Origin: an uncultured Verrucomicrobiae bacterium
Lineage (GTDB): Bacteria > Verrucomicrobiota > Verrucomicrobiia > Chthoniobacterales > JAFAMB01
Assembly: GCA_963762565.1 (NCBI GenBank)
Contig: CAVXLD010000012.1
Location: 224,001-288,000 of the forward strand
Direction: 5' to 3'
Length of the DNA: 64,000 nucleotides
The stretch's first letter is position 1. Every line of letters starts with the position of its first letter. The position numbers and the translations under genes were made by a program. This document shows, piece by piece, positions 31,133-33,827 of the stretch. Below the pieces are notes generated by a model. The model was not told the DNA's origin. It did no database searches and saw only the letters and a list, made by a program, of their open reading frames with translations.

Positions 31133-31150
31133 GGTCTGAATTCGATTTTA

Positions 31151-31336
31151 CCGCGCAGCCGTTACAGAACATAGCCCAGGGCTTCAGCCCTGGGTTAATC
31201 GCATAAGTGACACGCCCTGAAAGTGGCGTCCGAAGGACGATGATCCAGGTGTAAACGTAGTGCGATCTAGCGCCATTTTCGGATGACCGATTTAGTCAAT
31301 ACAATTGGGCTTTGAAACACATTTCGTCGGGCGCCA
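31151..31336 (+). repeat. REPIN family A: left arm, spacer and inner part of right arm
   Basis: CCGCGCAGCCGTTA..AGCCCAGGGCTTCAGCCCTGGG..CGCCCTGAAAGTGGCGTCCGA; the inverted arm begins TCGGGCGCCA at about 31327 and is interrupted by the IS. Confidence 0.8.
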
Positions 31337-31393
31337 CTCGTGAGGAACATGGTGGAGCTACCCACGACCCGCTGAGCAAGAGGAGGTACTTTT

Positions 31394-32809
31394 TCATGCT
31401 GCGACTGGAGTAAGTTGATAACCCATCTGACGAGCGGAAGCCGCCAGGCGTTTGAGCCTGGCGTTGGTCATTGAGCTTTTCCTGCTCAGCGAAGAGGCTC
31501 AGATCAAAAGGGACCTGTCGGGTAATGAGAGTCCAAATGATTCTGGCTAATTGATGAGCCATGGCAGTGATGGCTTTGGGAGGACTCAGTCTAGCCCGTA
31601 AGCGGCGGTATTTATCGCCTAAGTAGCTTTTGTTGTGGTGGAGAGAAGAGGCGGCCATGCGTAAGGCTTGTCGCACTCGGTTTTGGCTGCGGCGGGTACG
31701 GCGGCGCAGTATCTTACTAGCACTGGTTTCATTGTCTGGGCATAGACACAGCCAGGAAGCAAAATGATGCTGGGTTTTGAAGGCGTTTAACTCATTGCCT
31801 AGCTCGGTCATGAGCGTCAGTCCGGTCAGAACGCTGATACCAGGAATGACGGTTAGATCCACCCCAAAGAAGCGCTCCAGCTCTTGTTGCCAGGGACCCT
31901 CAGGTTGATTCTTGCTGGTCTTCCTGCAGGCCTTCTTTTTAGGCCGTGGGCTACTTACCGGCTCAGCACCCAATAATTCGGCCTTTAAGCGCACCACTTT
32001 AGCCGGTTTAATCACCGTGGTGCAGGCTCAAGCTCACGGGTGTAACCCAAAAGCTCTCTGTCACAGTCCTGGATCTGCTTTTGCACCTCTTGGTATTGAG
32101 CCCAAGCCTTCGCCAGCACAAAGAGATGCTCTTTACGCCAGTCGCCTTCCAAAGATTTGACGACCTTCTCTTCAGAAGCCCGGATGCGCTTATCGCGCAA
32201 CTTCGCTAATTGCACTGGATCTCTCTGCCCGCTTAAGAGGCAGCACGTGGCCTGACCGGTAAGGCCGCTTAGATCGTCAATGACGTGGTGCAGCTTGATA
32301 TTCATTTGCGCCAGGCTGCCTGCATATGCTGCACGTGCTGAGCGGCAGGGAGAGCAAGTTTTGCCGGAAGCATAAGAGCGGGTGGCGCAAATAGTCTGAG
32401 CGGGACGAAAGGAGCCCAACAGCAAGCCCACACTGTGCAGATACTGCAACCACTGGCAATCCCGCACGTCGCTCTTGCGACCTGGCACATTCTTGACATG
32501 CCGTGCGTTAACTAAGCAGACCTTCAGCCCCGCATCCTCCAGCAATTGATAAAGCGGTATCCAGTACACCCCAGTGGCTTCCATCGCCACGCTCTGCACT
32601 CCACAGTCAACTAACCACTGCACGATGGCCTTAAGATCTTGAGTAAAAGCCTCAAAGCGGCGCACCGAGTTTTGGTCACCCTCGGCCGCGACGGCCACCC
32701 AGATTTCCTCAGCTCCCAGATCAATGCCAGCCGCGTTGGGTTCCTGCTCACGGATCGCTTTAGTGGCTTCAGGCTTGGTTTTTGCTTTTGTTTTCCTATG
32801 CTCTTTCAT
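31394..32809 (-). pseudogene. IS110 transposase/recombinase (DEDD RuvC and Tnp domains), multiply frameshifted
   Basis: AAGIDLG, VAMEATGVYW, VNARHVKNVPGRKSDVRDCQWL, FASWLCLCP...SA, KAITAMAHQLARIIW; ends ..MGYQLTPVAA*. Frame changes near 32350, 32250, 32015 and 31455. Confidence 0.88.
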
Positions 32810-32818
32810 TGGGATTGG

Positions 32819-33007
32819 CCAACGAAGGAGGCTTGGCTCAGACGGCGAAAAATAGAGACATTCTCGTGAACGGAGTCCTGGATCCACTTAGACGGATTCC
32901 GGCCACCACTGAATTGATCGCAGCGTCTGATTCCATGCTTTCAGTCGGGCTTAGCTACCACGGAGCACCACTGTGGCCTCGGATTACTTGCTAAGCCTCC
33001 TCGTTGG
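32819..33007 (-). ncRNA. Candidate IS110 bridge RNA (structured non-coding end)
   Basis: Lies in the about 290-bp non-coding end upstream of the transposase; closed by an about 15-bp inverted repeat (32819-32834 / 32993-33007); contains junction-matching 10-mer and 7-mer. Boundaries are inferred. Confidence 0.55.
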
Positions 33008-33098
33008 TGCTCCTGCCTTAGCAACTCCAAAACGCTGCTGCACCATAAATCGAATGTTCCCTCTCCGAATTGCACCCGCGTAGCGGGTTGGAGATGCT

Positions 33099-33170
33099 TT
33101 CAGGGCGCACCTCTCGACGCCAGCACCAAGGGCTGAAGCCTAGGCTGTGATGTATAGCCGCTTCGCGGCA
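33099..33170 (-). repeat. REPIN family A: outer part of right arm
   Basis: TTCAGGGCGCAC..CCAAGGGCTGAAGCCTAGGCT..TAGCCGCTTCGCGGCA is the reverse complement of family A units. Confidence 0.8.
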
Positions 33171-33319
33171 AAATCCAACAGAGCCTAGGCGAGCTGGGCT
33201 CGACCGGAACGGGCTCGCCCCGCGGCTGCGGGAAAGGCAGCGGCTTGTCGGGTGGCGACCCCGACGGCCTCGCACGTGTCCTCCATAGCTTTAGCGACGG
33301 AGGAAGCGACGCAGCGCTC

Positions 33320-33827
33320 TTTGGTGGGGCGAGGCTCCCGAATAATCCAGGCGTTTGTCCAAAGCGGTTGGGAGTGCCGGCCCGCAGCATACTGTTACGG
33401 CTTAAATCGCGCCGAGCCGTGGTCTACCGTGGGCCACGGCTCGGCGCGCCTATCCGCCCTGTTCATGCAACTCCCGGCGTTTGTGTGATGCACCCTTGGT
33501 CAATCGCTGGGCCGTTCGGGAGGGTCCGTGGTCAAGACATAGGTAACAAATCATGGTCAAGACATGGGTAACAGGTACATACAAAAAATGACTGGGGTGA
33601 CTCGGAGATCCGCCCAGCTGGCCGACGGAGGTCAGCTGATAAAAATCGCATGCCGATCGTTCGCGAGAATGGTCGCTTCTGCCCTCTCACACATTTCACC
33701 CTCAAAAAGGACAACCAAAGGAACCATACATTTTTTGATTGCCCAAGAATAGGTATATAAAAAGCACATTTTCTCGACAAAGTGTTACCTATGTCTTGAC
33801 CACGTTCAGGAGCCTCGCCCCACCAAA
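33320..33827. repeat. Palindromic element family C, interrupted by a MITE
   Basis: Terminal IR TTTGGTGGGGCGAGGCTCC / GGAGCCTCGCCCCACCAAA; central palindrome CGCGCCGAGCCGTGG..CCACGGCTCGGCGCG; intact inverted copy at 62140-62355. Confidence 0.85.
33523..33808. mobile_element. MITE (286 bp) with IS481-like ends and GGAG target duplication
   Basis: 22-bp IR CGTGGTCAAGACATAGGTAACA / TGTTACCTATGTCTTGACCACG, a second tandem copy at the left end, GGAG on both sides; absent from the 62140 copy of the host repeat. Confidence 0.8.

Follow-up and report, generated by a model that had tools for sequence, protein, structure and literature searches.

The bridge RNA of IS621, an insertion sequence of Escherichia coli, is laid out, in the available parts of the two reports that describe it (PMC11208160; PMC11208158), as a stem, the left target guide (LTG), a stem loop, the right target guide (RTG) and a handshake guide, and its core dinucleotide is CT. 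ISPpu9, from Pseudomonas putida KT2440, is described in the accessible sections of PMC12288879 as having AG at both ends, a 43-bp left box that includes a palindrome and a 16-bp right box; it targets REP sequences, it has a long structured leader, and there are non-autonomous modules flanked by copies of its boxes. The same sections give CT for ISPpu10, which resides in the same host. For the seekRNAs of the IS1111 family (ISEc11, ISPa11 and ISKpn4), it is reported in the available part of PMC11187229 that a segment complementary to the top strand precedes a segment that matches the bottom strand. On core polarity, nothing was found in the accessible part of the preprint 10.64898/2026.08.14.744561.

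The locus described here lies in the window, by which is meant the whole stretch of 64,000 nucleotides that was analysed. The region between the left end of an IS110-family insertion sequence and its broken transposase gene is very probably a bridge (guide) RNA gene. The element is an undescribed, decayed member of the AG-core (ISPpu9-like) kind, and the mechanism of bridge RNAs is itself already known. What is gained is a well-supported bridge RNA, together with a covariance model that matches ~130 relatives across many phyla, and a base-by-base map of a layout unlike that of the engineered IS621/IS622 systems: the mapped differences are the AG core, the swapped guide positions, the 5+2-nt left guide with its handshake, the subterminal inverted repeats and the left-end hairpin. 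The features are as follows.

31339..33096, minus strand: IS110-family insertion sequence, decayed copy of 1758 bp (empty paralogous site; copies in the same genome and in relatives)
33099..33103, minus strand: left target half CTGAA, followed by the core AG (33098-33097), within the loop of a REP-like hairpin
31330..31336, minus strand: right target half TGGCGCC (junction sequence and uninterrupted paralogous site)
33054..33096, minus strand: left terminal module of 8 nt, a DNA hairpin, CAATTC, a 5-nt spacer and a subterminal inverted repeat (same layout in relatives)
33087-33075, minus strand: left-end DNA hairpin CCCGC-TAC-GCGGG
33072-33067, minus strand: left-end segment CAATTC, with the same letters as the donor-loop 5' strand
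33061-33054, minus strand: subterminal inverted repeat GGGAACAT, preceded by the left spacer GGAGA (5 nt)
31337..31350, minus strand: right terminal module, ATGTTCCT (31350-31343), CACG and the core AG (31338-31337)
31343-31339, minus strand: left donor half TCACG, overlapping the right terminal module
31394..32809, minus strand: transposase pseudogene (DEDD_Tnp_IS110 and Transposase_20) with several frameshifting indels
32819..33007, minus strand: predicted bridge RNA core, 189 nt, closed by helix P1 (33006-32990 with 32837-32820; covariance model, compensatory changes)
32973..32977, minus strand: predicted right target guide GCCAC, target-loop 5' strand, complementary to the core G plus TGGC (31337-31333)
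32936..32944, minus strand: predicted left target guide CTGAA plus AG (32944-32938) with a handshake-type CA (32937-32936), target-loop 3' strand (covariation)
32911..32916, minus strand: donor-loop 5' strand CAAUUC, identical to the left-end segment 33072-33067
32863..32869, minus strand: predicted left donor guide TCACG plus AG, 3' strand of the donor-binding loop (covariation)

The locus resembles IS621, as far as the latter is described in the parts of the reports cited above, in that the RNA gene lies in the non-coding left end, upstream of the gene for a DEDD/Tnp recombinase, and the RNA presents a target loop and then a donor loop; in both there is one guide per DNA strand overlapping the 2-nt core, a handshake beside one guide and a REP-type target. 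Set against the same descriptions, the core on the coding strand is AG here and CT in IS621; the left guides occupy the 3' strands of the loops rather than the 5' strands, and it is the 5' strand that carries the short right target guide; the left guides are of 5+2 nt; and the handshake comes after the left guide in the target loop. The recombinase is also longer (~470 aa vs 326-328 in IS621, with ~140 residues between the two domains unaligned), and the element carries subterminal inverted repeats of 8 bp and, at its left end, a DNA hairpin; no core-proximal right donor guide was found in it. An earlier note on this DNA had warned that the architecture might differ from that of IS621, and the position of the left guides on the loop 3' strands together with the AG core on the coding strand bears this out. 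When the DNA is turned round, the layouts of the window element and IS621 coincide, with CT on the non-coding strand, and because of this the simplest reading would be that the geometry of RNA, protein and DNA is the same as in IS621, the body of the element being inverted relative to the core. In anatomy, ISPpu9 is the published element that matches best, a likeness drawn from its description in the accessible sections of PMC12288879. It shares the AG ends, the left palindrome, the REP target, the structured leader and the mini-elements (found in 16 places here); its boxes compare with a left end of AG, 34 nt and the 8-nt repeat, and a right end of the 8-nt repeat, 4 nt and AG. With the IS1111 seekRNAs, as presented in the available part of PMC11187229, the locus shares the order of segments and the presence of subterminal inverted repeats with unequal terminal extensions. 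In IS1111 elements, in contrast, the RNA lies downstream of the transposase gene rather than upstream, and the repeats are of 11-13 bp with extensions of 7 and 3 bp, as against 8 bp with extensions of ~36 and 6 nt here.

Both junctions are real ends of the element, because an uninterrupted paralogous repeat in the same genome (G000 C5:286031-285764) is colinear with the left flank, AG and the right flank, which it joins at AG. Read on the minus strand, the left junction is ...CCCTGAA-AG-CATCTCC... and the right junction is ...TTCCTCACG-AG-TGGCGCC..., each with one copy of the AG core (33098-33097 and 31338-31337). The element is inserted at AG within a REP-like hairpin, GCGCC-CTGAAAGT-GGCGC, the loop of which is its target: exact CTGAA-AG-TGGC sites are found 13 times in the genome (~2.9 expected), 11 of them in the hairpin context. 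A second copy of the element is present in the same genome (G000 C3:842440-840713) and is 76% identical to that in the window. The surroundings of the window copy form a REPIN-like unit, in which Acido-Lenti-1-like hairpins lie next to the target hairpin GCGCC-CTGAAAGT-GGCGC, itself present twice in inverted orientation, once split by the element and once intact ~110 bp downstream (window 31149-31194, minus; 33126-33170, plus; 31216-31238, plus). The flanking repeats match Acido-Lenti-1 (Rfam RF01687) with 35.1 bits, just under the threshold of 37, and what Rfam lists as an ‘RNA’ motif may belong to a REP-type DNA repeat used as a target for insertion.

The transposase gene follows a 287-nt leader on the minus strand and is broken into two ORFs, on which the Pfam families PF01548 (DEDD_Tnp_IS110) and PF02371 (Transposase_20) were matched; the copy on C3 of the same genome matched the NCBIfam family NF033542 (IS110 family RNA-guided transposase) with 177 bits against a cut-off of 140. 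When the window gene and the C3 copy are compared, several frameshifting indels are found in the former and one in the latter. Frameshifts in the gene of both copies leave the RNA without a working partner in this genome. With its own enzyme gene broken in this way, the window copy is a fossil, and for this genome a dead insertion sequence lying within a REP-like repeat is an ordinary finding. In intact relatives, the transposase is 469-477 residues long, and an intact ORF of 380-520 aa stands behind the RNA in 85 of the 102 aligned relatives. A profile made from 26 family proteins matches the transposases of IS621 (8wt6, E 3.4e-20) and ISCro4 in two stretches, one over the DEDD domain and the other over the Tnp domain, including its serine motif; a search of solved structures with a single sequence had given no match, whereas that with the profile did. 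A tblastn search of plasmids with the transposase of the C3 copy (345 aa) returned 388 records at E<=1e-5 and no named insertion sequence, because all of them are annotated simply as ‘IS110 family transposase’.

The fold of the leader in the window is framed by a long closing stem, of which the 5' strand CCAACGAGGAGGCTT begins at 33007 and the 3' strand AAGCCTCCTTCGTTGG finishes at 32819, so that 189 nt are enclosed; the earlier note had proposed a long-range stem around some 190 nt, and this helix is kept by compensatory changes in relatives. Within it, the target-binding loop is framed by a stem (32983-32980/32935-32932) and a hairpin (32970-32946), and the donor-binding loop by two stems (32930-32924/32844-32838 and 32921-32918/32848-32845) and a hairpin (32908-32871). 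The earlier note's strings and coordinates were all found to be correct when the minus strand was read again. Thus CTGAAAGCAT is present twice, at 32944-32935 and 33103-33094, and TCACGAG is present twice, at 32869-32863 and 31343-31337; by our own arithmetic, a 10-mer match is expected by chance ~3e-4 times and a 7-mer match ~0.017 times in ~285 nt. CTGAAAG (32944-32938) is the left flank plus the core, and TCACGAG (32869-32863) is the right end plus the core. An Rfam search at E<=1 placed no family on the leader, its matches being limited to the flanking Acido-Lenti-1-like repeats and a weak VA RNA match at 33408-33451.

Three smaller pairings that had been proposed within the leader fared less well. 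The inner GGCCAC/GTGGCC stem is not kept in L183 and L102, where the 5' partner is TTGCCC while the 3' partner is GTGGCT, and its GCCAC is instead the right target guide. ACTGAA and TTCAGT, named as a competing pair, are complementary in the window copy and are not kept in the close copies. The alternative stem TTGCTAAG/CTTAGCAA is likewise complementary in the window, and was rejected since it is not kept throughout the close copies. TTGCTAAG (33024-33017) is complementary to CTTAGCAA (32996-32989), a part of the closing helix 5' strand, and the complementarity is partly kept in some close copies (in G008, 7/8 pairs with a wobble); in a precursor transcript, such a pairing could form in competition with the closing helix.

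The guides were followed through a set of 11 full close copies of five sequence types: the window copy, the C3 copy, L182 (same genus, 86-88% identical), six copies in G008 (same family), and L101 and L102 (metagenome contigs). In these 11 copies the left flank before AG reads CTGAA, TCACG or CTTTC, and the RNA segment of the same copies reads likewise; the right end before AG reads CACG, CAGG, GGTG, TATG or TGTG, and the donor guide carries the identical four bases each time. The six copies in G008 (L183, L188, L191, L194, L196 and L198) are of one element, four of them with an intact 469-aa gene, and all are inserted at GCGC(C/T)C(T)TTC-AG-(G/A)GCG. Directly ahead of the element in L101 stand the right end of another copy, of the window type, and then AG (L101:3-83). 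The target guide of the L101 element, TCACGAG, equals the right end of this sibling plus the core, and its right target guide still fits the REP half. From this match between guide and sibling end, one lineage seems to have been reprogrammed so that it inserts at a sibling's right junction that is already occupied, giving tandem copies. The C3 copy (L002, G000 C3:842441-842452) has the same guide as L101, but only 12 nt of such an end upstream.

For more distant relatives, a nucleotide search with nhmmer gave two weak matches to the left end of the window element among 80 loci, and because of this a covariance model was needed. It was built from six close-copy RNAs (188 positions, 56 pairs) and was run on 80 genome and 80 metagenome loci encoding relatives 35-50% identical (two closer, at 89% and 67%), in which 60 and 70 matches were found, respectively. 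The RNA lies directly upstream of the gene, on the same strand, in all model matches but one or two. In the family alignment of 102 covariance-model matches, 94.4% of cells in the helices are paired, a figure to be read with the caveat that the alignment was fitted to the covariance model itself; 52 of the 56 pairs, which fall into 8 helices, are changed on both sides, none of 500 shuffles scored as high, and slid controls reached 32-43%. The AG core and the mirrored order of guides are found in 102/102 aligned relatives.

The earlier note had read the two segments as the left target and left donor guides, in a target loop followed by a donor loop, and had proposed that their covariation with target and donor be checked in homologues; they covary across the family as they do in the close copies. 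Of the 90 loci with at least 100 nt of sequence upstream of the RNA, 69 have the target 7-mer again in that stretch, at a distance of 50-105 nt (one outlier at 123), against a mean of 0.9% and a maximum of 4.5% with shuffled guides. The donor 7-mer recurs ~1360-1525 nt downstream (a few outliers at 1045-1893) in 62/72 loci, against a mean of 6.2% and a maximum of 16%. There are 65 distinct target 7-mers and 26 distinct donor 7-mers, every one of which terminates in AG; the exact 7-mer is missing upstream in 21/90 loci and downstream in 10/72.

These results bear on the view that the structured leader is purely a translational control element of the transposase mRNA, the junction matches being incidental. 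The long 5' UTR of ISPpu9 folds and inhibits translation, as described in the accessible sections of PMC12288879, and the 3' strand of the closing helix in the window stops 10 nt short of the ATG, as such a role would suggest; that two segments of the RNA covary with DNA lying beyond it is, however, unexpected for a leader that acts only in cis, which makes translational control on its own very unlikely, and the two roles are in any case compatible rather than exclusive.

The right-hand guides, which the earlier note could not place, were sought by scanning all columns of the RNA against the DNA at both junctions. An antiparallel Watson-Crick diagonal was found between the 5' strand of the target loop and the right flank at +1..+4 (alignment columns 53/51/49/48; observed 0.52-0.63, expected 0.28-0.31). 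This places the right target guide at GCCAC (32977-32973), which pairs with the G of the core alone and not with the whole AG; a right donor guide of the IS621 type was not found. Across 80 elements, a mean of 3.49 of the 5 positions of the right target guide are paired (2.65, sd 0.10, when shuffled), and it is perfect in 17/80 elements as against 2.9 when shuffled. In addition, the two bases after the left target guide equal the first two bases of the element at 0.90 vs 0.49 and 0.66 vs 0.32. The CA at this position in the window behaves like the handshake guide of IS621, and this handshake-type extension accounts for the ten rather than seven identical bases in the earlier note. That the internal copies of the junctions act as DNA, for instance as sites to which proteins bind or as remnants of a duplication of the ends, with no RNA involved, is highly improbable: the left guides and the donor-loop 5' strand do all show identity rather than complementarity to the ends, but they sit in the loops of a structure whose helices vary in the compensatory manner expected of RNA, G-U pairs included, the right target guide matches by complementarity rather than identity, and the protein family has been found experimentally to be RNA-guided in the available parts of PMC11208160 and PMC11187229.

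A right donor guide complementary to the core plus the start of the left end was looked for, and scans that took the core or the inverted repeat as their anchor gave no diagonal. The donor-loop 5' strand (CAAUUC, 32916-32911) is instead identical to a segment of the left end that lies beyond the conserved DNA hairpin, and in close copies CAATTC, TAATTC and TTTTTC change in step at the donor loop and the left end. In one register, the two places share 4.36 of 8 bases over 50 elements (shuffled 2.83, sd 0.16, max 3.32), and this identity gives the strongest signals in the inverted-repeat-anchored scan; the strand was found to have no pairing partner within the RNA core. The identity implies that it is the bottom strand, also read by the left donor guide, that is paired with. 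Such pairing would be at odds with the IS621 scheme if the donor is not folded by the hairpin. It is conceivable, on balance doubtful, that AG-core (ISPpu9-like) IS110 elements are a widespread subfamily in which the bridge RNA is a mirror image of that of IS621 and makes a third programmable contact with the donor. The segment contacted would tentatively be placed just past the conserved DNA hairpin, 5 nt ahead of the 8-bp subterminal inverted repeat, and if this is true the donor would be read in a folded or cruciform geometry and not, around the core, as a straight duplex. Other possibilities for the identity are structural mimicry or a third partner common to both segments. Should the extra contact be real, there is a further programmable part to donor recognition in this subfamily, which bears on the design of mini-donors, and this would be why the natural mini-elements described below keep 35 nt of the left end.

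The ends of most of the relatives compared share the layout of the terminal modules of the window element. An 8-nt inverted repeat (<=1 mismatch) was found in 50/58 relatives, 4 nt from the right AG and ~34 nt from the left AG; in the relatives' layout, these ~34 nt consist of 7-8 bases, a DNA hairpin, ~7 bases and the 5-nt spacer. The left-end hairpin has an MFE of <= -4 kcal/mol in 49 of the 58 (mean z -2.0), and its stem sequences vary between lineages; the palindrome GCCC-N4-GGGC is absent from the family's Pseudomonas loci (L053, L060-L064). For ~60-100 relatives, the analysis documents the mirrored guide layout with its handshake, the inverted repeats and hairpin of the ends, and the donor segment that is identical to the left end.

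Geneless mini-elements of ~135 or ~260 bp were found in 16 places in G000 (for example C3:108611, C11:6829 and C5:278571), none of them in the window. They open with the 35-nt left module of the insertion sequence (AG, hairpin, GCTTTTC), their right end reads ...GCGCCTTGTG-AG and their flanks read ...C(C/T)TTC-AG; the corresponding 35 nt of the window (33098-33064) have >20 genomic copies. They resemble non-autonomous derivatives, which could be mobilized by an element whose guides are of the L102 type; an intact element of that kind was not found in this genome. The recurrence of these first 35 nt, in more than 20 places and in another context, could be taken to mean that the true left end lies ~30 nt further in and that the terminal hairpin module belongs to a genomic repeat, a reading that is barely credible: the uninterrupted paralogous site has no terminal module, the six copies in one relative have the module in common and differ in their upstream flanks, the other genomic copies of the module are left ends of mini-elements with a matching right end of their own (...TTGTG-AG), and in 69/90 loci the target guide fits the flank immediately ahead of the module. 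The inner left end was accordingly ruled out by the empty site, the flanks in relatives and the mini-elements, and the left end is kept at 33096.

The sequences show the fold, the covariation of guides with DNA, where the element ends and to which family its protein belongs; by analogy with the work on IS621 and ISPpu9, the RNA would be made, would bind the enzyme and would direct recombination. A domain of ~189 nt with a long closing helix presents two internal loops, the target loop and then the donor loop. In the target loop, the 5' strand GCCAC would pair with the top strand immediately to the right of the insertion point, and the further CA would match the start of the element in a handshake-like manner; the RNA-bound recombinase would then bring together the element's joined ends and the loop of the REP-like hairpin and exchange strands at AG. 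A promoter and terminator scan of 32750-33250 found none, and the integrated copy has no sigma-70-type promoter in this interval. In soil RNA libraries, 4/4 (four studies), contigs of 124-351 nt with 90-96% likeness were found on 32774-33107, a weak hint of expression, given that the contigs are from relatives, that the runs were picked for containing this stretch, that DNA carry-over is possible and that the contigs carry no strand or end information. The transposase part is nearly uncovered in the four runs, from which nothing follows since they were picked with the leader. Three of the contigs end at 33006-33012, two of them with loose ends, and no RNA 5' end is claimed. The contig of run X16, which lies on 32774-33107, continues upstream past the left end into a right end like that of the mini-elements, with TCACG and AG, and would be a right-end/left-end junction, of either a tandem or a circle.
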